Assembly: GCA_031413715.1 (NCBI GenBank)
Contig: JANOFO010000011.1
Span: forward strand, 18,903-82,902
From: Minisyncoccota bacterium
Lineage (GTDB): Bacteria > Patescibacteriota > Minisyncoccia > Phycocordibacterales > UBA9973
Length of the DNA stretch: 64,000 nt
Direction: 5' to 3'
The notes below the pieces were generated by a model, which was not told the origin of the DNA, searched no databases, and was given only the letters and a program-made list of their open reading frames with translations. A program made the position numbers and the translations under genes. The first letter of the stretch is position 1; each line of letters opens with the position of its first letter. Below are positions 34,133 to 62,431 of this stretch, piece by piece.

Positions 34133-34882
34133 ATGAAAAATGAACAATTAGTGAGTATTTTAAATGATACAGGTCTCACAGAAAATGAGGCGCAGGTGTA
34201 TTTGACTTCCCTCTCTTTAGGCCCAACTACTATATTAAGAATTGCAAAATCGTCAGGGATTCGTCGAACCACTGTTTACTCGGTGGTAGAAACACTCAAG
34301 AACAAGGGTTTGATGCATATCAAGCCTGTAGGACTCAAGCAACTCTATGTAGCCGAGCATCCGGATCGACTTGAGAGCATAATTGAGAGTAAGAAGCGTT
34401 CTTTGCAGAAATTATTGCCTGAATTTACTGCACTTTATAATCTAAAAGGTGGAGAAAGCACTGTTAAGTACTATGAAGGACTAAATGCCGTAAAAAATAT
34501 TTACGAAACGATCCTTGATCCATTAAAACCTAATGATGACTATCTTGTAATCTCAGATCTTGAAAAATTTTTTGTAAAGATAGATAAGAAATATTTCGAA
34601 GAATTCCTAGAAAAGCGTATAAAATCAAGGGTAAAAGCGAGATTGATAGCCACAGATTCAGAAAAGTCTCGATATATGAAGCAGTATGCCAAAAATATGA
34701 ATCATGAAGTGAGAATTCTCCCTGAGGGTTCGAAACTTTCAGTAGATACCATGATAACTCCTCAGAAGGTCACAATTTTCAACATGGACGAGCCTGTTTC
34801 AGCCATAAGCTTGGAAAATAAGGCTATGATAGAGATGCATAAAGAGCTTTTCGAGATTATTTGGCGGTCATTACCCGAATAA
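34133..34882 (+). CDS. TrmB-family transcriptional regulator (paralog 1 of 4)
   Basis: N-terminal LGLTENEAQVYLTSLSLGPTTILRIAKSSGIRRTTVYSVVETLKNKGL HTH typical of TrmB; ~170-aa C-terminal domain. Confidence 0.75.
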   Translation: MKNEQLVSILNDTGLTENEAQVYLTSLSLGPTTILRIAKSSGIRRTTVYSVVETLKNKGLMHIKPVGLKQLYVAEHPDRLESIIESKKRSLQKLLPEFTALYNLKGGESTVKYYEGLNAVKNIYETILDPLKPNDDYLVISDLEKFFVKIDKKYFEEFLEKRIKSRVKARLIATDSEKSRYMKQYAKNMNHEVRILPEGSKLSVDTMITPQKVTIFNMDEPVSAISLENKAMIEMHKELFEIIWRSLPE

Positions 34883-35039
34883 ATTGCCTTTATATATCAA
34901 CACCTTTTGAGCTTGCGTCAAAATCCCCTTGGTATATAATAAGATTATCCTGTTTAAAGGACCACGTGTGCACAGGGTCGAATATTATTCAGATAGTATT
35001 CTCACATTTTTCACAAAGATTGGTGTGGGCAAAGAAATA

Positions 35040-35312
35040 ATGAATAAACAAGCATTAGTTGAATGGGTTCATGGCAAAATCGGCGGTACAAAAGTACAGG
35101 CTGAAGAAGTTGTGAACGGTATGTTTGATGCTATTGTCGCTACTTTGAAAAAAGGCGACGAAGTATCAATTGCAGGAATCGGAATCTTTTCAGTCAAGCA
35201 ACGCGCAGCTCGTATGGCTCGCAATCCAAAGACTGGAGCAGCAGTAAAAGTGGCTGCAACAAAGGTTCCAAAGTTCAGAGCTGCAAAGGCTTTGAAAGAT
35301 GCTGTAAAATAA
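35040..35312 (+). CDS. hup: DNA-binding protein HU
   Basis: MNKQALVEWV...GFGTFSV-like core (GIGIFSVKQRAARMARNPKTG); start at internal ATG 35040. Confidence 0.85.
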   Translation: MNKQALVEWVHGKIGGTKVQAEEVVNGMFDAIVATLKKGDEVSIAGIGIFSVKQRAARMARNPKTGAAVKVAATKVPKFRAAKALKDAVK

Positions 35313-35333
35313 TTTTTTTATACATATTAAAAT

Positions 35334-35364
35334 ACCACTCTATTCTATCCATGAGTGGTTTTTT
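35334..35364 (+). terminator. Rho-independent terminator after hup
   Basis: accactc-(12 nt)-gagtggt followed by TTTTT. Confidence 0.55.
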
Positions 35365-35398
35365 AATGCCTGGTCATTTACATAGTGGTATAATATAA

Positions 35399-35575
35399 AT
35401 GACATTCGATATTTGGCTATATAAAAAACTGCTTATGATAAATATACTTTTGTATCATTTAGATCAAGCTGTTAGGTTTGCTAGGGGGTTTGGAATTTGG
35501 ATTTTATTTCTTGCAGTATTTTTTACTTTTCAAAATATTATAGGAAAACGCAAACTTAAAAAGAAACAACAATAG
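35399..35575 (+). CDS. Candidate small membrane protein (58 aa), possibly leaderless
   Basis: ORF MTFDIWLYKKLLMINILLYHLDQAVRFARGFGIWILFLAVFFTFQNIIGKRKLKKKQQ preceded by tgGTATAAT; one TM; not in the ORF track (<60 aa). Confidence 0.25.
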   Translation: MTFDIWLYKKLLMINILLYHLDQAVRFARGFGIWILFLAVFFTFQNIIGKRKLKKKQQ

Positions 35576-35660
35576 TAAGTTATTTCTTGCAAGCATTCGT
35601 CAGTTGGATCGTGGGTTGCTCTCGGGCAGCCCACTTTTTATATTCTAAAAGAAAAAGCTG

Positions 35661-36467
35661 CTATTTTTTAATTTCCTTAAGGAAACTCTCACCATCTTTT
35701 TCTTGTCCGACAAGCCTTTTAGACGATTTCCACACAAGCTCAAATTGCGAAGACAACATTTCCACGAATTCATTACTTTCAACTATAAATCCAAATGACT
35801 CCTTTTTTGAGGAAATAAATGCTACTTTATTTCCATATATCCAATAACCCATCGAAAAGGCAATTTCTGGGGGTGCAATGCGGATTTCTCTAAAAAATTT
35901 ATCTCCTCCTCCCATAAAAGTAAGCTTTTTTATATCTACTACCTGTGTTTCTGGCCATATTGCCCGTACGTATATTCTTTGCCTAACACGTTCTATATTG
36001 AGGTTTTTAAAATACTCTTCAGAGATGTTTTCAATGATAGACTTAATCGGCCAGTATGACATTGTTTGAATATCTCTATACAGAAGTACATCTTTTAAGA
36101 TATTTCTGAGCCCTTCCTTACCTTCAAAGAGTTGAAATTTTGGGCTTGTTGTCACTCCCCCTAATTTAATATGATCAAAGGTTTTTATAATATCATCCTT
36201 CCCTTTCTCTAATTCATTTATACGTTCTTCCAAGATTGAAACTAGCATATCTTTTGAATTTGCAATAAAAGTTTTCACTCCATTTTTTTGAGATTCGGTT
36301 ACAATACCAAGTTTTTGCAACTTACGCACAAACCCATATAAAGAAGGACGAGAAAGTCCGGTTTTCTTTGCTAAATTGCCAGCAGTTTGTTCACCGTTTT
36401 CCAAAAGAAAAAGAAATACTTTTATCTCTTGATTCTTGAGTCCAAGCTTGGATAGAATCTTTTCCAT
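35661..36467 (-). CDS. TrmB-family transcriptional regulator (paralog 2 of 4)
   Basis: LGLKNQEIKVFLFLLENGEQTAGNLAKKTGLSRPSLYGFVRKLQKLGIV HTH. Confidence 0.75.
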   Translation of the reverse strand: MEKILSKLGLKNQEIKVFLFLLENGEQTAGNLAKKTGLSRPSLYGFVRKLQKLGIVTESQKNGVKTFIANSKDMLVSILEERINELEKGKDDIIKTFDHIKLGGVTTSPKFQLFEGKEGLRNILKDVLLYRDIQTMSYWPIKSIIENISEEYFKNLNIERVRQRIYVRAIWPETQVVDIKKLTFMGGGDKFFREIRIAPPEIAFSMGYWIYGNKVAFISSKKESFGFIVESNEFVEMLSSQFELVWKSSKRLVGQEKDGESFLKEIKK

Positions 36468-36590
36468 ATTTGAATTTTAACAAAATGTGGTATGTTGTCA
36501 AATTTGTACAACAGTATTTACATGTATTGACAACTTGTATATACTATGTCTGAAATAAATTCATTCCAATCAAATAAAAAATAAATAATT

Positions 36591-37073
36591 ATGAAAAAAT
36601 TATTTTTCTTGCTGACTTCTCTACTCATAGTAGGATTTAGTTTTTCTCAAAACTCTAAAAAAGGATTGCAGAAAATAACCTTCGGCGTCGTGTTTCCAGT
36701 CGCCGCTAACACATCGTTCGAAGGAACAGAAAAGCCATTTACGGTAGGATTTAATTTACTTCCAAACATATGCTTTGTAACGTCCAGTACATATCACAAC
36801 TTTTTATATAGTATGGGAGACAATGCATTAAGAATGATAAACGGAGGTAAAATAAAGGAAGATCTGGGGTTATATATTGCTCTTGCTAAAAATTTAAGCT
36901 CATCTGGCGGATATGCAGGTGTTGGTATTGAAAAATTCATCCCTGCTGCTCCAGGTGTAACATTCTTTCTTTTTGTAGAGGGAGGAAGAAATATTGTTCC
37001 CACAAATTCCAAAAACGTTCTAAAAATTGGATTTCATTTAAATATCCAATCTATTCTTTGGAAAAAGAAATGA
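36591..37073 (+). CDS. Secreted hypothetical protein
   Basis: Signal peptide MKKLFFLLTSLLIVGFSFSQ; strong AGGA-less start but clear ORF. Confidence 0.5.
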   Translation: MKKLFFLLTSLLIVGFSFSQNSKKGLQKITFGVVFPVAANTSFEGTEKPFTVGFNLLPNICFVTSSTYHNFLYSMGDNALRMINGGKIKEDLGLYIALAKNLSSSGGYAGVGIEKFIPAAPGVTFFLFVEGGRNIVPTNSKNVLKIGFHLNIQSILWKKK

Positions 37074-37095
37074 TGTAATCAGAAATTCCTTACCG

Positions 37096-37123
37096 CAGGA
37101 TGCCATTGGCATCCTGTTTTTTT
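37096..37123 (+). terminator. Rho-independent terminator
   Basis: caggatgcc-attg-gcatcctg followed by TTTTTTT. Confidence 0.65.
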
Positions 37124-37137
37124 ATTTACAAAATCTG

Positions 37138-37208
37138 TGCGGGATAAGAGAATCGAACTCTTGCCAGCAGTTTGGAAAACTGCAGTTCTACCACTAAACT
37201 AATCCCGC
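37138..37208 (-). tRNA. tRNA-Gly (anticodon UCC), no encoded CCA
   Basis: Hand-folded cloverleaf: acceptor GCGGGAT/ATCCCGC, anticodon stem GCAGT/ACTGC with loop TTTCCAA, T-arm AAGAG-TTCGATT-CTCTT. Confidence 0.8.
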
Positions 37209-37359
37209 AAATTGAGTGCTGGGAATTTCGACTCTTACAGAGTCAGTGTGCCTTTTCAATTTGCTAACGCAAATAATGAAAAGGTTTTCGAATCCCGGAC
37301 ATACGCAAAGTAGTTTGCGTATCACCCCTACAATACCACGCCAAAGCGCGGTCTTGTTG

Positions 37360-37432
37360 TCGGGGTGCCGGGATTCGAACCCGGAGTCGCCTGTTCCCAA
37401 AACAGGAATGTTAGCCGTTACACCACACCCCG
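37360..37432 (-). tRNA. tRNA-Pro (anticodon UGG), no encoded CCA
   Basis: Acceptor CGGGGTG/CACCCCG, anticodon stem CCTGT/ACAGG loop TTTGGGA, T-arm CCGGG-TTCGAAT-CCCGG. Confidence 0.8.
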
Positions 37433-37490
37433 AAAAATAAACTTCCGCAAAAATACTCACCTATAGTAGCATACTTTTACTTAAAAACAA

Positions 37491-37895
37491 TTATAAAATC
37501 ACATTTTCTATAGTTCTGACTCGTGCTGTTTTATTCTTAATATCCAAATAAACGAGGATAACATCGAACTGCCAAGAGGTGTTCCCTATTCTTTTATGTA
37601 TCAAATATGTCTGGATTGTCCTTGAGAGACGTTTCATCTTCCAGGGATGCATGTTCTCTTCTGGTCTTTTGATAAATGGGTTTTCATCTTTAAAATCAGG
37701 AAGTGCAACACAAGAAACAGATTTGACCTCTACGAAGTACAACTTCCCTTCTTTTTCTGCAATTATATCTATTTCACCCCATTTTTTCGTGTAATTTCTC
37801 TCTAATATGGTGAAATTATGTTTCATGAGAAACTTACAGGCTATATCTTCGCCTAACTGTCCTACTTTTTGAGAATTTGAAGTAAAATTCTTCAT
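37491..37895 (-). CDS. yraN: YraN/UPF0102-family endonuclease
   Basis: GQLGEDIACKFLMKHNFTILERNYTKKWGEIDIIAEKEGKLYFVEVKS matches the UPF0102 signature. Confidence 0.75.
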   Translation of the reverse strand: MKNFTSNSQKVGQLGEDIACKFLMKHNFTILERNYTKKWGEIDIIAEKEGKLYFVEVKSVSCVALPDFKDENPFIKRPEENMHPWKMKRLSRTIQTYLIHKRIGNTSWQFDVILVYLDIKNKTARVRTIENVIL

Positions 37896-38156
37896 AAGTG
37901 TTTCACGTGAAACAGTTAATTATTTATCGGACATATATTTGAATAGTAAATTCTGTCCTTCAAAAATTACCATTATATTGTAAGTCTATTTTTAATAAAA
38001 ATCAATATGCCTGTATTTTGTAGCTTTAGTAAAGAAGTGTCTTTTATCAACAATGCACACATAGTTATCCACAAAAATCTTAATTTAAAAGGTTTTTAGT
38101 AGGGGATAAAAGACGAATAACGGTCACATTGAGATTGAGTATCAGAGACAAAATTG

Positions 38157-38227
38157 TGCGGCGTAGGAGAATCGAACTCCTGTCTCATCCTTGGCAAGGA
38201 CGTGTTCTACCACTAAACCAACACCGC
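38157..38227 (-). tRNA. tRNA-Gly (anticodon GCC), no encoded CCA
   Basis: Acceptor GCGGTGT/ACGCCGC, anticodon loop TTGCCAA, T-arm AGGAG-TTCGATT-CTCCT. Confidence 0.8.
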
Positions 38228-38327
38228 ATTAAAACATGCCAATTATAATATTTTTATTTAAATAAAGCAATTATTTCTTCGGAATTTAGTTGTTTTTCGA
38301 AGAATTTTGTGGTAAGATAGTTTTGCA

Positions 38328-38771
38328 GTGAAAAAGTGCACTAGATGTAAAAAAGAAAAGCCTGTAGAGGAATTCAATTTTAAAATCAAGAAAACAGGAT
38401 TACGGCAATTACAATGCCGAGAATGTACTCGCTTATTAATTAAAAACCATTATAATACAAACAAGCAGTATTATTTATTAAAAGCAAGAAAGCGTAATAA
38501 AATTTTGCGCGATGAAATTAACCTTTATATATATGAGTATTTATCAAGAAATCCTTGTGTAGATTGCGGGGAATCAGATGTTGTCGTTCTAGAGTTTGAT
38601 CACATGGGAATAGTCCCAAAATTAAATACAGTCTCCTTCTTAGCAAGAGTACATCGTCCGATAAATGAGATACAAGCAGAAATGGATAAATGCGAAGTTA
38701 GATGTGCTAACTGTCATAAAAGAAAAACCGCAAGAGATTTTAAATGGTTTAAAAATAATATGCGCCCGTAG
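38328..38771 (+). CDS. HNH endonuclease with N-terminal zinc ribbon; 3' end overlaps tRNA-Arg
   Basis: CTRCKK...CRECTR ribbon; CVDCGESDVVVLEFDH...CANCH HNH core; stop codon TAG at 38769-38771 lies inside the tRNA acceptor stem. Confidence 0.7.
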   Translation: MKKCTRCKKEKPVEEFNFKIKKTGLRQLQCRECTRLLIKNHYNTNKQYYLLKARKRNKILRDEINLYIYEYLSRNPCVDCGESDVVVLEFDHMGIVPKLNTVSFLARVHRPINEIQAEMDKCEVRCANCHKRKTARDFKWFKNNMRP

Positions 38772-38834
38772 CTCAACGGATAGAGCATTTGTCTTCGGAA
38801 CAAAAGGTTGGGGGTTCGATTCCCTCCGGGCGCA
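38762..38834 (+). tRNA. tRNA-Arg (anticodon UCG)
   Basis: Acceptor GCGCCCG/CGGGCGC, D-arm GCTCAACGGATAGAGC, anticodon stem TTTGT/ACAAA with loop CTTCGGA, T-arm GGGGG-TTCGATT-CCCTC. Confidence 0.85.
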
Positions 38835-38846
38835 CCCAAGTTTCCT

Positions 38847-40418: not shown

Positions 40419-40445
40419 CCCGCGCGTTGTACACGGGTTATTTTA
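40417..40445. terminator. Hairpin aacccg-(11 nt)-cgggtt followed by ATTTT after cca
   Basis: Seen directly. Confidence 0.5.
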
Positions 40446-40876
40446 GTAAAGAAAAGTCTACTCTTCTTCAGACTGATCAGCGTGGATAGATTCATCCCCC
40501 AACTTCTCTCCTGTCTTTTCTGCTACAACTTTTTCGTTGTTGCGAATTTCAGAATCATCTAATGGAAGTAATAAAACTTTTTCCTTCTTTGGCTTTTTTT
40601 TCTTGTTTCTGGGCATGGGCAGTAAATTTAAATGAAAAATATATTGAGAAAGAATTTCCTAATAAAAGGATCTGTCAAAGACTTAGATATATTTTGACTA
40701 ATCCTTCTTTTTTTCTTTTTGGAGCTTACATAAATACATGAAGATTGAACCTGCAATAATAAAGCAGATAACAGCTCCGATAGGTTTCCAGTCCATTTCA
40801 ATAAGATTTGAATCGATCATATCATATTTATTGTCTATGGTATACTGATAAATATTAAGAATAAGAATTTGAAATT

Positions 40877-41368
40877 ATGATCACAAAAGAACAATACATA
40901 GAAGCGCTCGTGAATGAATTTCGCATTATAAAGCACTTGGCCGAAAAAGTGAAGCCAGAGCAACTCTCGCATAAGCCGACGGAGAAGCAGCGGACAACCA
41001 ACGAACTGCTTCATTATTTGACTCATATATTTAGCGCTGGAGTCGATGGGGTAGTAAGCGGGGACGCGGATGCATGGAAAAAGCATTTCGGGAGTCCAGC
41101 ACCAACGCTCGAAAATTTCGCGGAGCTCATAGACAAAGAAGAAAAAGAAATAAGAGACATGCTTGCACCACTTACAGAAGATGATCTTGCAAAGGAAATC
41201 GCCATGTGGGGTATGACTCAGAGCCGGGCACTTCACCTCCTTGGACTCCTCAAGATTGCATCAGCATACAAAATGCAGTTATTCCTTTATATGAAACAAT
41301 CGGGTACCGAGAATATCGGCACGATGAATCTCTGGGCTGGTATGGATCAACCACCAAAAGCAAATTAA
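40877..41368 (+). CDS. Hypothetical helical protein (possibly DinB/YfiT-like four-helix bundle)
   Basis: 163 aa; family assignment weak. Confidence 0.5.
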   Translation: MITKEQYIEALVNEFRIIKHLAEKVKPEQLSHKPTEKQRTTNELLHYLTHIFSAGVDGVVSGDADAWKKHFGSPAPTLENFAELIDKEEKEIRDMLAPLTEDDLAKEIAMWGMTQSRALHLLGLLKIASAYKMQLFLYMKQSGTENIGTMNLWAGMDQPPKAN

Positions 41369-41371
41369 ATT

Positions 41372-41403
41372 AAAATCCCTCCGACCTAGGTCGGAGGGAT
41401 TTT
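41372..41403. terminator. Perfect 32-bp palindrome aaaatccctccgacc-ta-ggtcggagggatttt between convergent genes (bidirectional terminator)
   Basis: Seen directly. Confidence 0.7.
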
Positions 41404-41406
41404 AAT

Positions 41407-43104
41407 TTATACAAATTCCTGTTGGTAGCATTTTTCGCAGTAGACAGTCTCGGGTCGATCAGGAGCAAACGCTGTTGTGATATCGGCATTGCACTTTGCG
41501 CAGTTTCTTTTCCAGAGGTGTGGGGGATTGAGTCTATCGAAACGAGCCTTCTGTCTGCACTGTGGACAAAAATGGGGAATGGGTAAAGAAAGCTTAATCA
41601 AGAGATTCAATTCATCAGGAATTATTTTGTAAGCTCGTGAACAATGTGAACACGAGATCACTTCATTAGTGATAGAGGAGGTTGTGTTCTCTATGATATC
41701 AGGAAGAGAGGATGCATCTATAGTGGTTGTGGTTGTAGGATTTTCTGTCTCACTCCATCTATATCCTTGCGCCAATATATCTTCTTTGGCTTTCGGAAAG
41801 AACCTCATAGCATTAGATTTATTATATGGAAATTTACTTATCTCAGGTGGGAAGAACTCTCCGTAAGGAAAATTTCGTCCTTGTGCATCTATATATGTAT
41901 TCTTCTTCATATCCTCGATAATCTGAGCTTTTAGTTTCTCAAATTCCTCTTTAAAATATTCTTTATTTAAAATACAATATGATTTTCTTTTTAAATTAAC
42001 ACAGCCAAAATTATTTTTCCCAGAAATATTCCAGATGCAGTACTGCAGATTAAATACATCTGGCCAACATTCCAAAGAAAAGTAAACAGAGTCAGTATTT
42101 TCACCAACAGTCACACTTTCATATATACTAGTTGCATTATTGCCCCAACCCGAATAATCTACGCAGTCTTTTGCAGGCTTCACCGTGATAAACTCACATC
42201 TTCTACAATCTTCCGCGCCACTGCAAATATACATATTTTCTGAATTTTTGGACTCGTATGTGTATTCTCCTGTGACATTTAAATTCAAGGAGTTGCCGCT
42301 ATACTCTCGATTTGGTTTTGTGAGCCAAAACGCCCTTGAAGTCTTTTTTAATTCTTGCAATTTTTCCCAAGAATCAAGACCCAATTCCTTGAGCTTTTCT
42401 GCGTATTCTTCTTTAGAATATTTCACATTGAAGATAGAATAAGATTCTCCGCGTAGATTTACACATCCGACACAATTAGTGCAGTTGTAGCAATTACGTG
42501 AGAACCATACATCGACACAAGTATCACATTCCTCGGAGAAGAAAGTCTGGTAGCATTTATTAATTCCGATTGATTCATAGCAGAGTTCGCAATCCAGTGC
42601 GCGCAAACAATCAGCACTATATTTTACAGTATTTAAAAGTGAAGAATAATAAACATTGTCACAAAAATCAGCCCAAAATATCAAGTAACAATCTTTAGAC
42701 CATGCGAGGGCATTGGCGTAATTACAATTTTTATTACTTATATAAAGACTCGTCAGAGCAGAGTAGGGAGTCTTGTTGGTAAGTTCTTTTACCTGTTCTA
42801 GGAATGGACGTGTTGGGTCATAGTCCATGCCGTATTCAGTGCCATCCCAATCATCTTTCCACCAACATGGTTGGCAGTAGATGCTCATTTTTTCTTCTGG
42901 TGAATACACAGAGAGGGTTTTATCGCCGCATTTATCACAATTGCGCCAACTTAAATTCCAGGTATTTTGAAATGCGAAGCGTCTGACAAGTCGGCACTCC
43001 GGACACCATGTCGGGTAGGGAACATTGATCTTCTTATAGTAAAGCTGATCGCGTTCATCAATACCGAAATCTTTTTTACAATTCTGACAGCTTCTTGTTT
43101 CCAT
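41407..43104 (-). CDS. Large Cys-rich protein with paired zinc-ribbon (CxxC...CxxC) modules at both termini
   Basis: 565 aa, ~50 Cys; N-terminal CQNCKK...CPECR, CDKCGDK...CQPCW; C-terminal CSHCSR...CPQCRQ, CAKCNAD...CEKCYQ; internal duplicated Cys-spaced segments; paralog begins at 63887. Confidence 0.7.
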   Translation of the reverse strand: METRSCQNCKKDFGIDERDQLYYKKINVPYPTWCPECRLVRRFAFQNTWNLSWRNCDKCGDKTLSVYSPEEKMSIYCQPCWWKDDWDGTEYGMDYDPTRPFLEQVKELTNKTPYSALTSLYISNKNCNYANALAWSKDCYLIFWADFCDNVYYSSLLNTVKYSADCLRALDCELCYESIGINKCYQTFFSEECDTCVDVWFSRNCYNCTNCVGCVNLRGESYSIFNVKYSKEEYAEKLKELGLDSWEKLQELKKTSRAFWLTKPNREYSGNSLNLNVTGEYTYESKNSENMYICSGAEDCRRCEFITVKPAKDCVDYSGWGNNATSIYESVTVGENTDSVYFSLECWPDVFNLQYCIWNISGKNNFGCVNLKRKSYCILNKEYFKEEFEKLKAQIIEDMKKNTYIDAQGRNFPYGEFFPPEISKFPYNKSNAMRFFPKAKEDILAQGYRWSETENPTTTTTIDASSLPDIIENTTSSITNEVISCSHCSRAYKIIPDELNLLIKLSLPIPHFCPQCRQKARFDRLNPPHLWKRNCAKCNADITTAFAPDRPETVYCEKCYQQEFV

Positions 43105-43107
43105 ATA

Positions 43108-43704
43108 TTAATTCATCTTTACTTTAATTATTCCAGTATTATTTTCGCTCGATAAATATCCTGTCCACTTTTCTAATTCTGGTACCTCTATAGAAAGCGG
43201 TATCTCTGGTTTAGTAAAAACGACAATACTTTCAAAAGATTTTTGTAGTATCTCTGCCTTTGCTACACACATATCAATATTGCCCGAAAGGACAAGCTTG
43301 TTTAGATCAAGGCATACCTTAAACACATCCTGGCCAAATGCTTCGATATTCTTAACAAGAATCACTCTTTCATCTATATCTTCCAGCTCTTTAATCGCCT
43401 CGATAAATAAATTCTCATTGCCGCTATCGAGAATCAAGACCTCGCTATCCTTGTTATATTTTAAATCTTCGATTGTGCTAGCAAAAGTTATTTTAGAATG
43501 ATCAGGTCCAATCTGTTCGAGAAAGTTATCCTTGGCCATAGGAAATGCAGTAAAAAATAATATCTTGGAACCTGCTCGAAAAAGCTCTGCTATGAGGCTT
43601 ACAGTAAAATGAGAACCTCCAGACTTCTCTCCATAGATAACTAAGTATGGCAGATCTTGTTCGGTTATTTTATAAGCCCCATTATTGAGTATAATTTCAT
43701 TCAT
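43108..43704 (-). CDS. RecA/KaiC-like P-loop-fold protein with degenerate Walker A, translationally coupled to the Cys-rich gene
   Basis: LVIYGEKSGGSHFTVSLIAELFRAGSKILFFT resembles KaiC/RadA-type ATPase core but GEKSGGS lacks the GK[ST]; 3-nt gap to upstream gene. Confidence 0.5.
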   Translation of the reverse strand: MNEIILNNGAYKITEQDLPYLVIYGEKSGGSHFTVSLIAELFRAGSKILFFTAFPMAKDNFLEQIGPDHSKITFASTIEDLKYNKDSEVLILDSGNENLFIEAIKELEDIDERVILVKNIEAFGQDVFKVCLDLNKLVLSGNIDMCVAKAEILQKSFESIVVFTKPEIPLSIEVPELEKWTGYLSSENNTGIIKVKMN

Positions 43705-43757
43705 AAGTTTATCTTAACAAAAAACTAAAGAAAAGACTTGTAAATATCTATTAAATA

Positions 43758-44510
43758 TTAACCCAGTTCAAGCTCCTGTTCAACTTGGTTTACAAATTCG
43801 AAAAAAGATTTATCTTTTTTTAACTGGTGGCTCCGTGGTCTTGAAAAAGGGACATCAAATATCTTTTTTATTTGGGCGGGTCGCTTAGACAAAACAACAA
43901 TCTTATCAGATAGGAAAGCTGCTTCAGCAACATCATGAGTAACAAATAAAACGGTCATTTTCTCTTTCTCCCAAATTCGAGTCAAGAGCTCTTGCATTTG
44001 AGATCGAGTTTGTGAATCAAGAGAACCAAATGGTTCATCCATAAGTAGGATTTTGGGTGTATTGGCTAGAGCGCGCGCAATGGCTACTCTTTGCTGCATA
44101 CCTCCGGAAAGATTCTTTGGGTGCGCAGTGCTGAAGTCTTTCAATCCTGTCATTTCAAGATAATGATCAAGAAGTTCTTTTTTATTCGCTTCTGAAAAAT
44201 CTTCCTTTAGATTAAGGCCAAATAATATATTATCTTCTACTGAGAGCCAGGGGAAAAGAGAGAAGTTTTGAAACACCATGCCTTTTTCTTGACTAGCACC
44301 TATCGTTTCTTTTTCATCAATAAGAATCGACCCGCTATTTTTTTCGACAAGACCGGAAACAAGACGCAAGATTGTGCTCTTGCCACAGCCGCTCGGTCCG
44401 ACGATTGAAATAAACTCCGAATCTCCAATTACCAAATCAAGGTTCTCAACAGCAAGAATTTGTGATTTTAAATTCGTATATTGTTTTGTAAGATTTTTAA
44501 TTTTAAGCAT
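43758..44510 (-). CDS. ABC transporter ATP-binding protein (NitT/TauT family)
   Basis: Walker [10 protein letters not shown], signature LSGGMQQRV, Walker B LLMDEPF. Confidence 0.9.
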
Positions 44511-45279
44511 ACGATTTGTCTGTCCAAGGGAATAATATTCTTGAGCTAATCTTAAAAAGATAATCTGTTAGGATCCCAAGAAAACCGATAACGACGATTC
44601 CCGCGAAAATATTATCTACTCTTAAAAATCTTTGGGACTCGATCATGAGATGCCCCAGACCAGAGGATGAACCAACTATTTCTGCGATAATGACGAATGT
44701 CCAAGCAGCCCCGAACATGATCCGGAAGGAATTCCAAATTGCAGGCATGGAGTAGGGAAGAATGACTTTCCATACAATATCGCTTTTTGTAGCACCAAGT
44801 GTCAGAGCCGCTTCCACAAGCTCTTTTCGGGTAGAGTGGACCGTATCCGCAATGAGAAGGGTCAAATATGGCGCGACGGCTAGTAAAATCAGGGTAATCT
44901 TTCCCATCTCCCCAATTCCACACCAGATAATGATAAGTGGAATAAAAGCAGAAGGTGGAACATAGCGAACAAATCCAATGATCGGTTCAATTGCCGATTC
45001 AGATTTTCGTGATATACCAAAGAGCATGCCGAGCGGCAACGCAATGAAAACAGAGAGGGTAAAACCTATGACAATTCTAAAGAGACTTGCCCCTATATCT
45101 CCAAGTAAATTTCCTTGCGCGAACAACGTTACGATGGAAGTAAGGACAGAGGCCGGTGATGGTAGAAAAAATGACGGGACAATATTGAGGGAGTAGATAA
45201 TCTGCCAAACAATTACAAAAGCGAGTCCTCCGGCAAAGGATAAAAGTAGATATTTGAGTTTTTCTCGTTTTGTTTCCAT
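44503..45279 (-). CDS. ABC transporter permease (NitT/TauT family)
   Basis: 6 TM; EAA-like loop ...AALTLGATKSDIVWKVILP. Confidence 0.85.
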   Translation of the reverse strand: METKREKLKYLLLSFAGGLAFVIVWQIIYSLNIVPSFFLPSPASVLTSIVTLFAQGNLLGDIGASLFRIVIGFTLSVFIALPLGMLFGISRKSESAIEPIIGFVRYVPPSAFIPLIIIWCGIGEMGKITLILLAVAPYLTLLIADTVHSTRKELVEAALTLGATKSDIVWKVILPYSMPAIWNSFRIMFGAAWTFVIIAEIVGSSSGLGHLMIESQRFLRVDNIFAGIVVIGFLGILTDYLFKISSRILFPWTDKSYA

Positions 45280-45286
45280 ACATTAA

Positions 45287-46279
45287 CTACTTGTTTAAAG
45301 ATTTCAATAGTGAATCATCAATAATAGAATTCGCGGCAGTAGATTTTCTAATCAATCCAAGTCTCTGCCACAGTGCACCTGCCTGATCAATCACATGATA
45401 AATGGAAGTATCACCTTTAGAGAAATATTTCATATTATCCTCATACGTTGTCCATTTAAATGTTGTCATCTGATCGACAACATCTTGCTTATTTAAATTA
45501 AAACCTTTCGCTATTATTTCGTATGATTCGTCAGGATGTGAAACTACGTAATCCATAGCAGTAAATACTCCTCGCATAAACGCTTTTACATCTTCAGGGC
45601 GATTTTCTACAACCTCTGCTCTCCAAATAGGACCACCAGGTAGTATTGGTAAATTCTTTGAAGACACAAGAAGGTGGCCACCTTCTTGATCAGTTGATTT
45701 CGAGAGCCATGGTTCCCACGTAACAGCTGCATCGACTTTTCCGGCTACAAAAGAAGCTCCTGCGTCAGCTGCACTTTGATTAATCGTTTTTATCTCAGAA
45801 GCATCAATGTGGTTTTGATCAAGTAAATATGAAAGGAGTAGGTGAGAAGGTGAGCCGGTTTCATATGCTATTGTTTTGCCTTTCAAATCTTCGAGGGTAT
45901 TGATCCCTTTTTTGACAACGATTCCGTCCGCTCCATCAGAGACATCATTAAGAGAAACAATTTTTATTGGAACTCCCGCATCAGCTAAAATCTGGACAGT
46001 TTCAGGCGTCCAACTTGTTATTGCATCGACTTTCCCCGAGGCAAGAAGCTGTTTTGCAATAGTATTTTCATCAGTTTGCTCAAGTTCAACGATGACTCCT
46101 TCTTTTTCCCAGAAACCCTTTTCTTCCGCGATAAAATATATACCACTACCAATCCAGGTGTTAAAGCTAATGCGCAACGGTTCTTGAGTTATTCTTTCTT
46201 CCGGCCGATTAAATATAAAAATTCCTACTCCGAGAAGAACAATAATACTAACTATGATCAAAATATATTTATTATTCAT
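45287..46279 (-). CDS. ABC transporter substrate-binding protein (NMT1/SsuA/TauA-like)
   Basis: Signal anchor plus periplasmic-binding-fold sequence; operon with permease/ATPase. Confidence 0.75.
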   Translation of the reverse strand: MNNKYILIIVSIIVLLGVGIFIFNRPEERITQEPLRISFNTWIGSGIYFIAEEKGFWEKEGVIVELEQTDENTIAKQLLASGKVDAITSWTPETVQILADAGVPIKIVSLNDVSDGADGIVVKKGINTLEDLKGKTIAYETGSPSHLLLSYLLDQNHIDASEIKTINQSAADAGASFVAGKVDAAVTWEPWLSKSTDQEGGHLLVSSKNLPILPGGPIWRAEVVENRPEDVKAFMRGVFTAMDYVVSHPDESYEIIAKGFNLNKQDVVDQMTTFKWTTYEDNMKYFSKGDTSIYHVIDQAGALWQRLGLIRKSTAANSIIDDSLLKSLNK

Positions 46280-46477
46280 TTATTTTAGGCTGTTTTAAGT
46301 AATGCTCGACATTTTGCTATTTATATGAAGAACATTATGCACTGAATTTTATAAATAGTCAATAAATACTACATAAGAAATAGTAAAAATACTTATATTT
46401 TAAAGAGTTTTTTGCGTAATTAGAATATTTTCGTCAGAAATATTGACATTTATGAGAATTAAAGATAGCATAGGAGA

Positions 46478-47224
46478 GTGGATAATATAAAAACTCTTAT
46501 AAAACTCGGGCTCACTGGAAAACAAGCACAAGTATACTTGGCTTTGCTTGAGCTTGGTGAATCAACTATGACTCGGATTGCCAGAAAGGCGAACTTGAAG
46601 CGCCCAACAGTTTACTTGGTCATAGATGAATTAAATATGCTTGGCCTCATAAGTGAAGTAGTGAAGGGTAAGAAAAAGTTCTACTCTGCCGTACACCCGA
46701 AGCGACTCGTAGAGATTGCGAAGTTTCGTGCAGGTCAAGCGGAAAAAATATTGCCTGAACTTGTAGCAATTCAAAAAAGTGACATGAAACCAAAAATCAG
46801 AATGCTCGAGGGAGTATCAGGTGCACGGATTGCGTATCAAGAGGCATTTGCATCGCTCAACAACAAAGAGGAAGGCTTATGGCTCGGCAATATAACATTT
46901 ATGGTAGAAAATTTCCCTGAATTACTCCAAGAGTACAATGTCTTGATTAAGAAGATTCGAGATCCGCACATCCGCGAACTCATTTACGGAGGTGAAAAGA
47001 GCAGAGAGTGGGTTCAAAATATGCAAGATAAGATTCCAAAGAATCATTTCATAAAATATTTTGGCGAAGGAAAAGGTTTCGGTATAACTGATCAATTTAT
47101 AATAGGGAACCAAATTATTAATTTTTCTCTAGGGAAAGAAATCTTTGTTCTCATTATTGAAAGCAAAGAAATAGCTCAAAGCCAACGGGCGCTCTTTGAA
47201 ATACTCTGGGAGAAAACAAAATAA
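46478..47224 (+). CDS. TrmB-family transcriptional regulator (paralog 3 of 4), divergent from the ABC transporter operon
   Basis: LGLTGKQAQVYLALLELGESTMTRIARKANLKRPTVYLVIDELNMLGLI HTH; apparent GTG start. Confidence 0.7.
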   Translation: MDNIKTLIKLGLTGKQAQVYLALLELGESTMTRIARKANLKRPTVYLVIDELNMLGLISEVVKGKKKFYSAVHPKRLVEIAKFRAGQAEKILPELVAIQKSDMKPKIRMLEGVSGARIAYQEAFASLNNKEEGLWLGNITFMVENFPELLQEYNVLIKKIRDPHIRELIYGGEKSREWVQNMQDKIPKNHFIKYFGEGKGFGITDQFIIGNQIINFSLGKEIFVLIIESKEIAQSQRALFEILWEKTK

Positions 47225-53481: not shown

Positions 53482-53823
53482 CTATGTACTAGAATACAAT
53501 CCTTTCCCAAGTTTGGTAGGATTGTGATGATGAGCGATTCTATCGAGTATAAGACGGTAGCCACCTAAACTGCCTTTGAGCCACTTGGAAATGCGGGCGA
53601 TAGTGGTAGAAGAAAGGCCGGTCTGCTCGATAATAGCGGCATACTGAGTATCACGAGAGAGGAGGCGAGCGGCTTCTAGGCGCTTGCCGAATTCCTCGAT
53701 CTCGCCTTCGGTCATGAGATCACGAAGAAAACGCTTTGCCTCATCAGCAGTTTCTAAAGAGAGGATTGCCTGTAGTAATTGATTATTCACTTTTTTGTTC
53801 CAATTTATTTCCATATATTCCAC
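53482..53823 (-). CDS. YerC/YecD-family (TrpR-like) protein
   Basis: ...AKRFLRDLMTEGEIEEFGKRLEAARLL...TGLSSTTIARISKWLK... matches the TrpR-like YerC family. Confidence 0.7.
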   Translation of the reverse strand: MEYMEINWNKKVNNQLLQAILSLETADEAKRFLRDLMTEGEIEEFGKRLEAARLLSRDTQYAAIIEQTGLSSTTIARISKWLKGSLGGYRLILDRIAHHHNPTKLGKGLYSST

Positions 53824-55625: not shown

Positions 55626-55835
55626 AACTGTATTTTATTTGATGATTTGAATATTCGATCGGAGTATAACCCTATTTATAAAAAAAGTAAATGTGGAATA
55701 AAGAATAGTTTTCTGCTATGCTAATAACATTAATAGGGATAATCAGTTATTCTCCAGACAAATAGAATTGAAACCATATGAGGAAAGCGTTTCAAGCCTA
55801 GAGTCTGTAGAATAGCTCACCCGGTAGTGAATTTT

Positions 55836-55870
55836 GGCGAAGTGCAAAGCACGCTCTTGAGAGCATCGCC
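55836..55870 (+). promoter_or_regulatory. Structured element in the pnp 5' leader (nested hairpins ggcga...tcgcc)
   Basis: ggcgaagtgcaaagcacgctcttgagagcatcgcc ~30 nt upstream of the pnp ATG. Confidence 0.35.
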
Positions 55871-55898
55871 GAAATCTACTATCCGGGTCACAATATAT

Positions 55899-58022: not shown

Positions 58023-58044
58023 ATGGGTACAAAAATCTAATAGA

Positions 58045-58944
58045 ATGGAAGAAAATAAATCCCAACAAAATAGTACCGGAGAGAATTTGAAGACGATTCA
58101 TACATATACGTCCGATATGGCTGATGCTGTTCGTGAAAACGAAGCGACGGTTATAAAGATAGCTCTCGCTGAAAAAGATAAGCGTGAACAGGAAGATATG
58201 TATAAAAAAGCACAGGGAACAGGAATTTCAAAATTCTTTTTAACTCTGGGAGGAATTATTCTTTTAGTTGGCGCTAGTATCCTCGTCTATTTCTTGATGC
58301 AAAGGAATGGGGCTATAAATGCACCCGTGAAAGCTCCAACAGCTGTTCCGGCAATTATATCGTACGATGATCAATCTTTCGTTGACCTTTCAAATGCCAC
58401 AAGTGCAAGCGACGTGACAGAAGCGATCAATCTCGAAGTGGAAAAGGGTGGAGCGCTCGGATCCATAAAGTCGCTATTATTAACAAAATTCGCGGAAGGA
58501 AAAGCGCAACTCTTTCCATTTGACGATTTTTTATCTTTGACTAAGATTGCGCCACCTCAAACACTCGTGCGTACGCTGAGCGGTGAGTACATGGTGGGAA
58601 TATATACATCAGAATCATCTAGAGCCCATTTATTCATGGTAGTACAGGTAAAAGATTTCAATCAAGCGTATGCCGCTCTCTTGGAATGGGAAAAAACAAT
58701 GCTCGATGACTTGTTTATCCTTTTCCATATTGACGTTTCAGGTGATCACAGTTCACTTTTCGAAAAACCTTGGAACGACATCATCATAAACAACAAGGAT
58801 GCACGTATTTTGTATGATGAGAGTGGAGATGATGTTCTCTATTATGTGTTTGCCGATAAAAACAATCTAATCATTGCTGATAATCAGGATGCTATTGAGG
58901 AAATTACTGCTCGCCTTCTCGTAAAAAATACGAAACCGCTTTAA
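58045..58944 (+). CDS. Hypothetical membrane-anchored protein
   Basis: One TM (FFLTLGGIILLVGASILVYFLM) then ~230-aa soluble domain. Confidence 0.5.
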   Translation: MEENKSQQNSTGENLKTIHTYTSDMADAVRENEATVIKIALAEKDKREQEDMYKKAQGTGISKFFLTLGGIILLVGASILVYFLMQRNGAINAPVKAPTAVPAIISYDDQSFVDLSNATSASDVTEAINLEVEKGGALGSIKSLLLTKFAEGKAQLFPFDDFLSLTKIAPPQTLVRTLSGEYMVGIYTSESSRAHLFMVVQVKDFNQAYAALLEWEKTMLDDLFILFHIDVSGDHSSLFEKPWNDIIINNKDARILYDESGDDVLYYVFADKNNLIIADNQDAIEEITARLLVKNTKPL

Positions 58945-59051
58945 GATTGCCATTTATAATAATAATGCTACTATTAAAAATACCTGTCCCGTTAAAAAAT
59001 CCACGAACAGGGATATACACGAAAAGATTATTATTTAAATTTTTTAATGAG

Positions 59052-59411
59052 ATGAATAAAGATATATACAAGAAAAAATTGGAAGAGGAGAAAAAACTGC
59101 TTGAAGAAGAGCTTGGTGCTTTGGGCCGTATTGATAAAACTACCGGCGAGTGGGAAGCTACTCCAGAAGCCCAAACTGCGCCAGAAGCTGATGAAAATGA
59201 CTTGGCTGACCGCAACGAAGATTATGAAGAGAGAACAGCTACGATGTCGGCCCTTATGGCAAGACTCGAAGATATAGACAAGGCTCTTATGAAGATAGAT
59301 GGTGAGGAATATGGCATATGTGAGTCTTGCGGTAAAAAAATAGAAGACGATCGCTTGGAAGCAAATCCTAGTGCACGCACATGTAAAGAGTGCATGGACA
59401 AGGCGCTATAG
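59052..59411 (+). CDS. DksA/TraR-family C4 zinc-finger protein
   Basis: Coiled-coil then CESCGKKIEDDRLEANPSARTCKEC. Confidence 0.75.
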   Translation: MNKDIYKKKLEEEKKLLEEELGALGRIDKTTGEWEATPEAQTAPEADENDLADRNEDYEERTATMSALMARLEDIDKALMKIDGEEYGICESCGKKIEDDRLEANPSARTCKECMDKAL

Positions 59412-59470
59412 TTAATCCTCCTGTTTAGAAAAACTTTAAAATAGAATCTATATGATAAAAAAGGGAACAT

Positions 59471-61075
59471 ATGTTCTCTTTTTTATTTATGTCATTCTCA
59501 CGCGTTTATTCTGCACAGACACATTTATTGAAAGGAAGAGTTGTCACTGTAGAAGTAGATATTACAAAAAATACACTTCATGCATTTACTCTGGTCGGCT
59601 TGCCTGATAAAGCAGTCGATGAATCAAAAGATCGCATGAGTTCTGCCCTCAAGAATTCTGGCTTTGCTTCGCCTAAAAATCAGAATCAGAAAATAGTTAT
59701 CTCTCTTTCACCAGCGGATTTAAAAAAAGAAGGTCCGTATTTTGATTTGGCTATCGCTTTAGCATATCTTCTGTCCGCCGAAGAGATAGATTTCGATCCA
59801 GAGAGTAGACTGTTCCTCGGTGAATTATCTCTCAACGGCGAACTCCAATCTATAAAAGGCGCTCTACCACTAACCCAAGAGGCTAAGCGTTTAGGCTATA
59901 GAGAAATATTTCTGCCGAAACAAAATGCGAGAGAAGCTGCACTTGTAGAAGGTATAATTGTATATGGAGCCGAAACATTAAAAGAGGTCATAGATCACAT
60001 TTATAAAATAAAGAGAGATAAAAAAGGGAATCCTCTCGAGCAAGAGCGAACAAAACTTTTACCTACTCCGAAAACAGAAATTATTCACGAACAAAGGGAA
60101 CCTGCTATCGACTTTGCAGATATTCGTGGACAGGAAGGTGCGAAACGAGGAATCGAAATTGCTGCAGCCGGAGGACACAACATTGCCATGTCAGGCCCGC
60201 CTGGCACTGGTAAGACAATGCTTGCACGAGTATTTTCATATATATTGCCAGACCTTAAAAATGAAGAAATTTTAGAAATTACTGGCATACACTCAGTTGT
60301 GGGTTTACTTGAAAATGATCTAGTTACAGAGTCGCCATTTCGCGCTCCACATCATACCGCAAGCTATGTATCAATGATCGGCGGAGGAGCAAATCCAAAA
60401 CCAGGAGAGGTAACACTAGCTCATAGAGGCGTTCTTTTTCTAGACGAATTTACTGAATTTGAAAAAAGAGTACTAGAATCTCTGCGCCAACCGCTTGAGG
60501 ATAACGTCGTGTCGATTTCGCGTGCTCGCGGGTCTGCAATATTCCCATCAAACTTTATTCTCGTCGCGGCCATGAATCCATGTCCATGCGGAAACAAAGG
60601 CAACAAACAGAAAAAATGCATCTGCAAACCTCACGATCTAGATAGATACAATAGGAAATTATCAGGTCCCATTATGGACCGCATTGATATCTGGGTAACT
60701 GTGGGTGTTGTTGATTATGAAAAGCTATCAAGCTCTGAGCAATTAGGAGAGAGAACTATTTCAATCAAAGAAAGAGTGAGAAAAGCTCGGGATATACAAA
60801 CAAAAAGGTTCAAATCTATACAAGAAGAAAATTCTGCACGGAAAATAAACACTAACAGCGATATGAATGTAAAAGATTTGGCAATATATGCACCCCTTAC
60901 GCCAGATATAAAAAAGCTACTCAATGATTCGGCTGAACGCTTGCAACTCTCTGCTCGAGCATACCATCGCACCATCAAACTCGCCCGTACAATCGCCGAC
61001 CTTGAAGGAAGTGAATCCATCACTTCCGCCCATATCCTCGAAGCTTTACAGTATAGACCCCGTACACAAAATTAG
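59471..61075 (+). CDS. comM: Mg-chelatase-like AAA+ protein YifB/ComM
   Basis: Lon-like N-domain; Walker A SGPPGTGKT, Walker B LFLDEF; C-terminal ChlI-like region. Confidence 0.85.
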   Translation: MFSFLFMSFSRVYSAQTHLLKGRVVTVEVDITKNTLHAFTLVGLPDKAVDESKDRMSSALKNSGFASPKNQNQKIVISLSPADLKKEGPYFDLAIALAYLLSAEEIDFDPESRLFLGELSLNGELQSIKGALPLTQEAKRLGYREIFLPKQNAREAALVEGIIVYGAETLKEVIDHIYKIKRDKKGNPLEQERTKLLPTPKTEIIHEQREPAIDFADIRGQEGAKRGIEIAAAGGHNIAMSGPPGTGKTMLARVFSYILPDLKNEEILEITGIHSVVGLLENDLVTESPFRAPHHTASYVSMIGGGANPKPGEVTLAHRGVLFLDEFTEFEKRVLESLRQPLEDNVVSISRARGSAIFPSNFILVAAMNPCPCGNKGNKQKKCICKPHDLDRYNRKLSGPIMDRIDIWVTVGVVDYEKLSSSEQLGERTISIKERVRKARDIQTKRFKSIQEENSARKINTNSDMNVKDLAIYAPLTPDIKKLLNDSAERLQLSARAYHRTIKLARTIADLEGSESITSAHILEALQYRPRTQN

Positions 61076-61116
61076 CATTAAGATTATCCTATAATCAACA
61101 CAAGCGATAGCACGAC

Positions 61117-61596
61117 ATGATTATTGCTGAAAAAATATTAACACTTCTTAATACCCAAACATCTCGATACAAGGGAGTCCCGTTAAACATATTCGGACTG
61201 CCAGTATTTAAGGAACACCATCCGCAATCAATACGAAATACCGTTTCTAAACTCCACTCTCAAAATCTTATTTTGTACTCAGGATCTTCAATGAAAATAA
61301 CAAAAAATGGTAAAAATTATTTAAAAAGAAGAAGCGTACTCCTGCAAACATTCGAATCTCCATTTAATGATATTCAACCAAAAAACTTACTAGTTTTATT
61401 TGATATTCCTGAAAATCGAAAAGCTGAGCGAGAATGGCTTAGAAGACATCTACGGAGATTCGGATACCATATGATCCAAAAGAGCGTTTGGGTTGGACCT
61501 TCGCCGCTACCTCAAGAATTTATCACTTATATAAAGAAGATACAGCTTAAGGATTCGATAAAAACCTTCAAACTCGCAAAACCATACCTAGGATGA
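61117..61596 (+). CDS. Putative PaaX-like regulator (wHTH plus Cas2-fold-like C-terminal domain)
   Basis: C-terminal LLVLFDIPENRKAEREWLRRHLRRFGYHMIQKSVWV resembles PaaX_C / Cas2-like fold; weak. Confidence 0.4.
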   Translation: MIIAEKILTLLNTQTSRYKGVPLNIFGLPVFKEHHPQSIRNTVSKLHSQNLILYSGSSMKITKNGKNYLKRRSVLLQTFESPFNDIQPKNLLVLFDIPENRKAEREWLRRHLRRFGYHMIQKSVWVGPSPLPQEFITYIKKIQLKDSIKTFKLAKPYLG

Positions 61597-61654
61597 GATA
61601 AACCTCATAATCACAGCAAGCGATCGCTTGTCGTGATTATGAACAAATATAAAA

Positions 61655-62431
61655 TTAGATTTCTTTATTTAATCTTTTTGCTTCTACCCAAGCGAGCTCG
61701 TAGATTTTCTTCATTGCATCAGCAATTTCAGCTGACTCGATAATGATACCGAGCTTCTCTCGCCAGGATGCGATCATAACTTTGTTGTCGTATATATTAA
61801 TTTCCGGTGAGAAATAAAATTTATCAGCTGGAACAAACGCTGTTTCTCTTGATTCTTCTTTATCTTTCGACCTTCTTTCGACACCAACTTCAGTTTTTGG
61901 AATAATAGCGCGGATTGAGATACCGTTACTAGCACGACGCTTATAATACTTAGGAAAATAGTTCGGCAATGCTGCATGCATATCATCAACTGTTGCATAC
62001 GCACGGATCGGCTCATGGGATGTCAGAGTATCCTCGTATACTTCTATCAACCCTTCGACGCCTTCGTAAAATCTGACACGCGAACGATCGGAAACATTGT
62101 GAATCGATTTGAGTTCAGGAATAATGTCTTCACTTTTTTTTAGTGCTTCATGCTTCTGTTTGATATCTTCAGTGATGAATCTACTCAAATTCTCTGGCGA
62201 CTCAGCGCTGTATTCTTGCTTAGGTTCTTTGCCTGAGATACTGACGAGACCCTTGGCGGATAGGGAATCGAGGATATCATAGCCAGTAGTGCGATTTATA
62301 TTAGCCCTACGCGAGATAGCTGAAACCGTCCCACGCCCAAGCTCAAGAAGCGAGATATACACACCCGCTTCCTTATCGGAAAGACCTACTTCTACTAACT
62401 TGTTCCGAAGTTGTACTTGCTCTTTTTTCAC
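61655..62431 (-). CDS. TrmB-family transcriptional regulator (paralog 4 of 4)
   Basis: VGLSDKEAGVYISLLELGRGTVSAISRRANINRTTGYDILDSLSAKGLV HTH. Confidence 0.75.
   Translation of the reverse strand: MKKEQVQLRNKLVEVGLSDKEAGVYISLLELGRGTVSAISRRANINRTTGYDILDSLSAKGLVSISGKEPKQEYSAESPENLSRFITEDIKQKHEALKKSEDIIPELKSIHNVSDRSRVRFYEGVEGLIEVYEDTLTSHEPIRAYATVDDMHAALPNYFPKYYKRRASNGISIRAIIPKTEVGVERRSKDKEESRETAFVPADKFYFSPEINIYDNKVMIASWREKLGIIIESAEIADAMKKIYELAWVEAKRLNKEI

Follow-up and report, generated by a model that had tools for sequence, protein, structure and literature searches.

The archaeal regulators TrmB and TrmBL1 of the Thermococcales bind palindromic operators at promoters. They are ~340 aa long and bear an extra C-terminal domain that binds effector sugars, while TrmBL2 is built without it (PMC4877046; PMC4158304). 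TrmBL2 (PF0496 in Pyrococcus furiosus and TK0471 in Thermococcus kodakarensis; structures 5bpd, 5box and 5bqt) is an abundant archaeal chromatin protein and global repressor, which binds coding as well as intergenic DNA (PMC4158304, PMC4877046). The present analysis concerns four genes for TrmB-like proteins, here called A, B, C and D, in a 64,000-nucleotide stretch of a Minisyncoccota bacterium (contig JANOFO010000011.1 of assembly GCA_031413715.1; the window). To our knowledge, almost nothing is known about transcriptional control in bacteria of the Candidate Phyla Radiation (CPR). A literature search found no paper linking TrmB with CPR, Patescibacteria or Parcubacteria, and a search on CPR transcription factors returned nothing relevant.

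All four genes lie exactly at the coordinates and on the strands that an earlier note on this DNA had given (see the table). That note had also described a TrmB-type helix-turn-helix at their N-termini, and this is confirmed: PF01978, rather than any unrelated helix-turn-helix family, is the best match every time, with 48.7-59.4 bits against a gathering score of 25.6 and E-values of 7e-13 to 3e-16, and the sequence motif quoted there fits A, B, C and D approximately. The homology goes beyond this domain, because the C-terminal ~170 aa are homologous too. Since A-D can be aligned end to end, at 25-29% identity and with 22 invariant columns found both in the C-terminal part and in the helix-turn-helix, they are true full-length paralogs and not unrelated proteins sharing a DNA-binding domain. 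A phmmer search of all six-frame open reading frames (ORFs) of the 64 kb recovered exactly A-D, with no TrmB-like gene in the first 34 kb. Among 64 aligned relatives, 64 match PF01978, and a recognition-helix tyrosine (Y49 in A numbering) is invariant in these and in the four paralogs; D carries Y-D at this point, like TrmB. The DNA-contacting tyrosine is Y50 in P. furiosus TrmB and TrmBL2, and Y49 in TrmBL1 (PMC4158304). Weak secondary Pfam matches to MarR occur in B and in 44 of the 64 family members. The TrmB-family label is already present in public records, where homologs from metagenome-assembled genomes of Candidatus Paceibacterota or the Parcubacteria group are named 'sugar-specific transcriptional regulator TrmB', and the family call is thus not new.

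The predicted fold is that of TrmBL2. An AlphaFold2 model of A, with the 64 relatives as input, reaches a pLDDT (predicted local distance difference test) of 91.5; in it, residues 1-74 form a winged helix, 78-105 a long helix and 110-246 an alpha/beta domain. In a Foldseek search against the PDB, TrmBL2 is the top match, over the full length (E 7e-14), followed by TrmB (4.5e-10) and then by proteins of the phospholipase D (PLD) fold, which match the C-terminal domain only. On this model, A-D have the TrmBL2-type short build of winged helix-turn-helix (wHTH), long helix and single PLD-like domain, in the same order and at the same size of ~260 aa. Beyond the helix-turn-helix the similarity to TrmBL2 is undetectable by HMMER. 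A profile of the four paralogs matches residues 8-180 of P. furiosus TrmB (3qph) and thus extends into the initial portion of its effector domain; the likeness to TrmB and TrmBL1 comprises the DNA-binding domain with its tyrosine, the dimerisation helix and this PLD-like portion.

The PLD likeness is one of fold only. The catalytic HxK(x)4D (HKD) motif is absent, and none of the conserved columns in the family alignment has an invariant His, Lys or Asp, so the domain is not an enzyme and an active PLD was rejected as a candidate. Many relatives of 510-1079 aa have one N-terminal TrmB helix-turn-helix and helix followed by ~2 to 7 tandem PLD-like C-terminal domains of ~130 aa, every copy closing with a ...F..LW.Q motif; because of these tandem copies, the PLD-like domain can be seen as a repeatable module. 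A role as a defence regulator (Csa3/CasR or other) was also rejected. PADLOC matches are weak (E 1e-6 to 1e-2), the stronger ones being confined to the wHTH and two weak Csa3 matches extending slightly past it.

Database matches to the four proteins split cleanly into four orthogroups, with medians of 2.1-4.5 for the ratio of best to second-best bit score. Judging from these comparisons, A-D are ancient, diverged paralogs and not a recent local burst. Identities among orthologs are 45-90% for A, 43-84% for B, 73-84% for C and 65-89% for D. Orthologs of D were found in at least 320 species in a scan of species-representative genomes, spanning Nomura-, Giovannoni-, Jackson-, Taylor-, Kerfeld-, Falkow- and Doudnabacteria, and long stretches of its C-terminal domain are invariant among them. 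Invariant residues of D include E123/G124, R165/R166, E232 and W248. The closed Paceibacteria genome OY969557.1 (876 kb) also has a D ortholog.

Promoter-like sequences were recognised upstream of all four genes. At B, C and D there is a -35/-10 pair close to consensus, with its -10 element ending 6 nt before the start codon, which suggests that these three are expressed from leaderless mRNAs. By a strict test for this signature, 3 of the 73 genes in the window qualify, and these are B, C and D (hypergeometric P about 6e-5); the signature recurs in 69/81 D orthologs. The predicted promoter of A would give a short leader, unlike those of the other three. C and D have GTG starts in this leaderless setting. 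Shine-Dalgarno-like motifs precede four of the 73 genes (for example, AAGGAGG before 62621), and the genome seems to lean little on Shine-Dalgarno-led initiation.

The earlier note had pointed out near-palindromes upstream of the four genes and had cited one of them. When the ortholog loci were searched with a separate alignment for each orthogroup, the cited palindrome and analogous dyads at the other three genes proved to be conserved far above chance. The cited palindrome, TGTTGTcaaatttgtACAACA, is the B dyad. It is unique in the window, where 0.15 occurrences are expected by chance, and it is both real and conserved, although it lies 10 nt to the left of the 36503-36523 given for it. B-type dyads are present in 23/27 B upstream regions (the window and 26 orthologs), compared with 0.86 in shuffles. 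Closer orthologs keep TGTTGT-N9-ACAACA, and distant ones have a symmetric variant, TGTCG...CGACA, with shorter spacing.

Of 80 orthologous regions upstream of D, 39 contain a perfect dyad, compared with 0.01 in shuffles. Its invariant parts are TGT in the left arm and, in the right arm, the TTGACA box; the TGT(G) arm is set apart from the -35 by 9-12 nt on the upstream side and has its mirror image in the CACA after TTGA. One subgroup has TTTTGT-N12-ACAAAA in place of TTGTG-N12-CACAA, and since both arms have changed, the symmetry of the dyad has been kept. Across the intergenic DNA of the window, the D motif matches at this one place. A scan of the 10 kb around D in 80 species located it at the promoter of D itself and, in one locus, before a tandem D-like paralog, with all else at chance level. 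A second conserved element, the direct repeat TTGAC-N8-TTGAC, precedes the D dyad by ~70 bp. It recurs in 45 of 76 D loci (0.045 in shuffles), irrespective of which gene is divergent, and could represent -35 boxes in tandem or else be bound by another factor.

The proximal dyad of A is conserved in five distinct upstream regions (the window and four orthologs), and a second dyad belongs to a block that recurs in A orthologs. At C, the layout of the upstream block is identical in the window and in four orthologs. The four dyads have a common TGT/ACA flavour, and differ in sequence and spacing, which fits diverged paralogs with separate specificities.

Table. Regulator genes, upstream elements and neighbouring genes in the window (positions are those of the 64,000-nucleotide stretch)
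Feature	Position	Strand	Remarks
TrmB-like paralog A	34133-34882	+	249 aa; wHTH, long helix, PLD-like C-terminal domain (predicted); PF01978 E 4.7e-15
TrmB-like paralog B	35661-36467	-	268 aa; PF01978 E 7e-13
TrmB-like paralog C	46478-47224	+	248 aa; GTG start; PF01978 E 1.3e-15
TrmB-like paralog D	61655-62431	-	258 aa; GTG start; PF01978 E 3e-16; best conserved of the four
Second A-upstream dyad, TGTCA...TGTCGACA	34045-34061		Conserved block TGTCATATnTGTC(T)GACA in A orthologs
Candidate A promoter, TTGCTA-16-TATGAT	34074-34101		Promoter-like match
A-proximal dyad, TGTTGTC-N10-GACA	34107-34128		Shortly before ATG, at predicted transcription start; window match 34109-34128
B promoter, TTGACA-16-TAAAAT	36474-36501	-	Ends 6 nt before ATG; leaderless signature
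B dyad, TGTTGT-N9-ACAACA	36493-36513		Covers B's -35; ends 3 nt from -35 of divergent promoter
Divergent promoter, TTTACA-17-TATACT, for gene at 36591	36517-36545	+	Conserved in B-ortholog loci
C-upstream block, ATATTTnnGTCAnAAATATTGACnTTT	46425-46451		Includes dyad GTCA-N7-TGAC (46433-46447) over C's -35
C promoter, TTGACA-17-TAGCAT	46443-46471	+	Ends 6 nt before GTG; leaderless signature
D promoter, TTGACA-18-TATAAT	62438-62467	-	12/12 consensus; ends 6 nt before GTG; leaderless signature
D dyad, TTGTG-N12-CACAA	62459-62480		One mismatch in window; overlaps D's -35
Direct repeat, TTGACG-N7-TTGACA	62534-62553	+	Two -35-like boxes toward divergent gene; promoter-like matches
HU-type DNA-binding protein	34929-35312	+	PF00216 E 6e-29; directly downstream of A, same strand
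Terminator-like hairpin after HU gene	35611-35634		Terminator-like site
160-aa protein	36591-37073	+	N-terminal signal-peptide-like segment
Operon divergent from C	41407-46279	-	Five genes; promoter-like site 46334-46362
Cys-rich 565-aa 'zf565'	41407-43104	-	C-divergent operon
198-aa protein	43108-43704	-	C-divergent operon
ATPase	43758-44510	-	C-divergent operon
Permease	44503-45279	-	C-divergent operon
SsuA/NMT1-type binding protein	45287-46279	-	C-divergent operon
389-aa membrane protein, weakly PnuC-like	62621-63790	+	Divergent from D; PF04973 E 6e-5, below cut-off
Second zf565-family gene, N-terminus	63888-64000	+	Cut by window end; follows PnuC-like gene

These observations are best accounted for if A-D are sequence-specific, probably dimeric and autoregulated repressors of the TrmB family, with a TrmBL2-like short build and their own dyads, which have become subfunctionalised; the probability of this reading is put at roughly 0.6. 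Each paralog would recognise its own dyad within its own sigma-70-type promoter, where the dyad lies over the -35 element in B, C and D and over the transcription start in A. Because the dyad covers this promoter, each is proposed to repress its own synthesis, with B, C and D presumably being translated from leaderless transcripts. B would probably also co-repress the divergent gene for a secreted-type protein, since the B site abuts the divergent -35. The catalytically dead PLD-like domain would then probably act as a module for effector response or oligomerisation through which the repressor is released, and its ligand sensing would differ from the sugar sensing of TrmB. MarR repressors, which are dimeric winged-helix proteins, bind to a dyad that overlaps the -35/-10 elements both of their own promoter and of a divergent one. 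A-D may work in a like manner without being members of that family, as PF01978 is always their best match; moreover, ligand sensing in MarR proteins takes place inside the wHTH dimer, whereas A-D have a separate PLD-like domain.

Several points weigh against this interpretation. The closest solved structure, TrmBL2, belongs to a largely non-specific chromatin protein, for which we know of no ligand, and a ligand role for the C-terminal domain of A-D is purely conjectural. The pairing of each dyad with the protein encoded beside it is drawn from position and co-conservation only. As the dyads overlap the -35 hexamer, part of their conservation must be that of the promoter, a point that weighs heaviest for C, where the right half-site TGAC falls within TTGACA. 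Half-site changes in distant B orthologs go along with changes in spacing, and the variation is therefore not clean covariation. Finally, no wider D regulon emerged from the 80 D loci or the window, and a regulon of D beyond autoregulation would thus be conjectural.

The main rival takes the likeness to TrmBL2 further, and sees in A-D nucleoid or chromatin proteins that show little sequence preference when coating DNA and serve as ligand-free global silencers, with D being universal and A coupled to HU. TrmBL2 is, after all, the best full-length structural match and of the same size, A lies directly upstream of the HU gene, and D-type sites are confined to D's own promoter. D in particular is nearly universal and extremely conserved in its lineage, just as TrmBL2 stands out in its own, the Thermococcales, as the family member with the highest conservation and the widest spread (PMC4158304, PMC4877046). 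However, A-D differ from TrmBL2 in being bacterial, in having sigma-70-type promoters and in forming a set of four diverged paralogs with different conserved dyads at their own promoters, a pattern of specific autoregulation into which a chromatin role fits poorly. The NCBIfam model for TrmBL2 (NF041141) gives C and D 19.0 and 20.3 bits against a cut-off of 530, and has no match in A or B. Such a role is therefore considered rather unlikely, though less so for D than for the others. A different objection is directed at the upstream elements, which may be nothing but strong promoter elements (-35 boxes, UP-like A-tracts) or the sites of another factor, with the TrmB-like proteins acting elsewhere. 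Every dyad includes or abuts a TTGACA box, and the other element conserved before D is repeated directly and does not form a dyad. Against this, the invariant TGT(G) arm of the D dyad falls outside any sigma-70 element, the left arm TGTTGT of the B dyad is conserved despite lying partly outside the -35 hexamer, and the dyads differ between paralogs even though the promoter consensus is the same. This explanation is likewise thought improbable.

The earlier note had seen in A-D an expanded set of sugar-responsive TrmB sensors, each for a different sugar and each controlling adjacent transporters. The TrmB helix-turn-helix is indeed present and the database names say sugar-specific, but the best match, TrmBL2, lacks the sugar-binding subdomain of TrmB and TrmBL1, so sugar sensing is unsupported. 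The proteins have 248-268 aa compared with ~340, and the TrmB effector-binding domain, PF11495, has no match at E<=1 in 64 of 64 family members. Structure prediction of the C-terminal domain, which the note had suggested as a check for sugar-binding folds, gave the PLD-like domain and no sugar-binding subdomain. The NCBIfam models for TrmB, TrmBL1 and halobacterial TrmB score 17-42 bits against equivalog cut-offs of 500-650. As for transporters, the proposed link is partly correct: C in the window, and B orthologs elsewhere, are divergent from an ATP-binding cassette (ABC) transporter. This transporter is of the SsuA/NMT1 (sulfonate-like) type and not a sugar transporter, and C orthologs adjoin other cargo. 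The annotated window genes around A-D include no sugar transporter or glycolytic gene, and the context is thus not one of sugar metabolism. Sugar sensing by A-D is accordingly regarded as very improbable.

A special local expansion of the family, which the earlier note had inferred from four genes within 28 kb, is not borne out either. In the relative GCA_040384245.1, which has the gene order of the window, A (followed by HU) and D (beside ComM, a DksA-like protein and PNPase) are in place ~19 kb apart, and B and C are absent from the stretch between them. Another relative has C in the same place, with an aminotransferase/DHDPS pair as its neighbour instead of the ABC transporter. From this synteny in close relatives, the cluster appears to be a conserved neighbourhood in which two regulators, B and C, come and go. 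With D-flanking DNA standing in for a genome-wide paralog count, 20 further full-length TrmB-like genes were found in 1.12 Mb around D from 80 species, or 1.8 per 100 kb, and some 20-kb D loci have up to four TrmB-like genes within ~16 kb. Against this background, three extra copies in 63 kb (Poisson P ~0.1) are not exceptional. The earlier note had named a paralog count typical of the lineage as grounds for rejecting its view, and for the DNA flanking D this is largely what is seen. If the same rate were to apply genome-wide, extrapolation would give roughly ten or more copies per genome of 0.6-1 Mb. The TrmB-like family comprises 2,990 clusters (50% identity, E<=1e-30), and the expansion is a property of the lineage and not of this locus.

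The region is otherwise a housekeeping neighbourhood, with genes for HU, a tRNA cluster, CCA-adding enzyme, ExoIII, a Xer recombinase, histidine ammonia-lyase, a YerC/TrpR-like protein, S15, an NYN-domain protein, PNPase, a DksA-like protein, ComM and a PaaX-like protein. The order A-HU is retained in a relative at 82% identity and lost at 65-68%. The 160-aa protein divergent from B has no Pfam or NCBIfam match; a homolog is divergent from B in two other loci, and its gene is a probable co-regulated target of B. In C-ortholog loci, the genes for the 198-aa protein and zf565 recur divergently, while the transporter is replaced or absent and variable cargo is inserted in between. It is thus less likely that C is devoted to regulating the ABC transporter. 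Outside the window, B orthologs often have an SsuA/NMT1-type ABC transporter as their divergent neighbour, the type that in the window adjoins C.

The divergent gene at D varies between species, from which it appears that the D promoter cassette is reused with different cargo. Homologs of the PnuC-like membrane protein are located at the same place in two other loci. In 12 species the divergent gene encodes a ~415-aa radical-SAM-like protein with a CxxxCxxC motif, and in 9 other species a Liv-type substrate-binding protein, with two ABC ATPases encoded behind it. A zf565 homolog is present on the opposite strand within 850 bp upstream of D in 18/61 loci, where about one is estimated by chance. 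The zf565 proteins form a large and well-conserved family, 62-83% identical across Paceibacteria and always annotated as hypothetical, which have zinc-ribbon-like CxxC...CPxCR motifs in their N- and C-terminal parts and end in CxxC-x17-CxxC. They are often multicopy and repeatedly divergent from TrmB-like genes; the examples come from the window and 15 other loci. The second zf565 gene of the window starts with MTKQNCKTCEKEIEI...FCPECR, paralleling the N-terminus of the first. An AlphaFold2 model of zf565 is of moderate quality (pLDDT 72) and found no fold match in the PDB.

Other small regulator-like genes are found in the same stretch. The gene for a 159-aa PaaX-like protein, 61117-61596 (+), with a winged helix and a Cas2-like middle domain, adjoins D; homologs are beside D orthologs in three loci and beside a B ortholog in one. 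Genes for the YerC/TrpR-like and DksA-like proteins are at 53482-53823 and 58947-59411. Four tRNA genes (Gly-TCC, Pro-TGG, Gly-GCC and Arg-TCG) lie at 37137-38838, and an 88-aa ORF at 37194-37460 that overlaps two of them is probably spurious. The true start of the CCA-adding enzyme is probably later than listed, since the TTG start (38808) overlaps tRNA-Arg. About the first 14 kb (positions 1-14000) have a raised G+C content, 0.38-0.44 compared with about 0.32-0.43 elsewhere, and a dense run of minus-strand ORFs.

A-D are not a new kind of system: they represent a TrmB/TrmBL2-type winged-helix repressor family in an understudied lineage. The novelty lies in assigning the proteins a TrmBL2-like architecture, in predicting four operators, in the leaderless promoter layout, in how extremely D is conserved and in the connection with zf565. 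The analysis provides concrete operator predictions for four regulator orthogroups, one of which is found in at least 320 species, and ties A-D to a large conserved hypothetical family. For these proteins, the database label 'sugar-specific regulator' is misleading.

A more far-reaching possibility, against which the odds stand but which deserves mention, is that D is a master regulator of Paceibacteria, carried with a ~130-bp cassette that consists of the dyad over its leaderless promoter and the TTGAC repeat facing the other way. If so, zf565, radical-SAM-like enzymes, Liv-type transporters and PnuC-like membrane proteins would be cargo plugged in behind this cassette, and through its near-invariant PLD-like domain D would respond to a single conserved signal inside the cell. 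That zf565 paralogs are paired with it time and again would hint at a first function for this large orphan family, and the TrmB-like family to which A-D belong would constitute the main transcriptional wiring of these symbiont-like bacteria.

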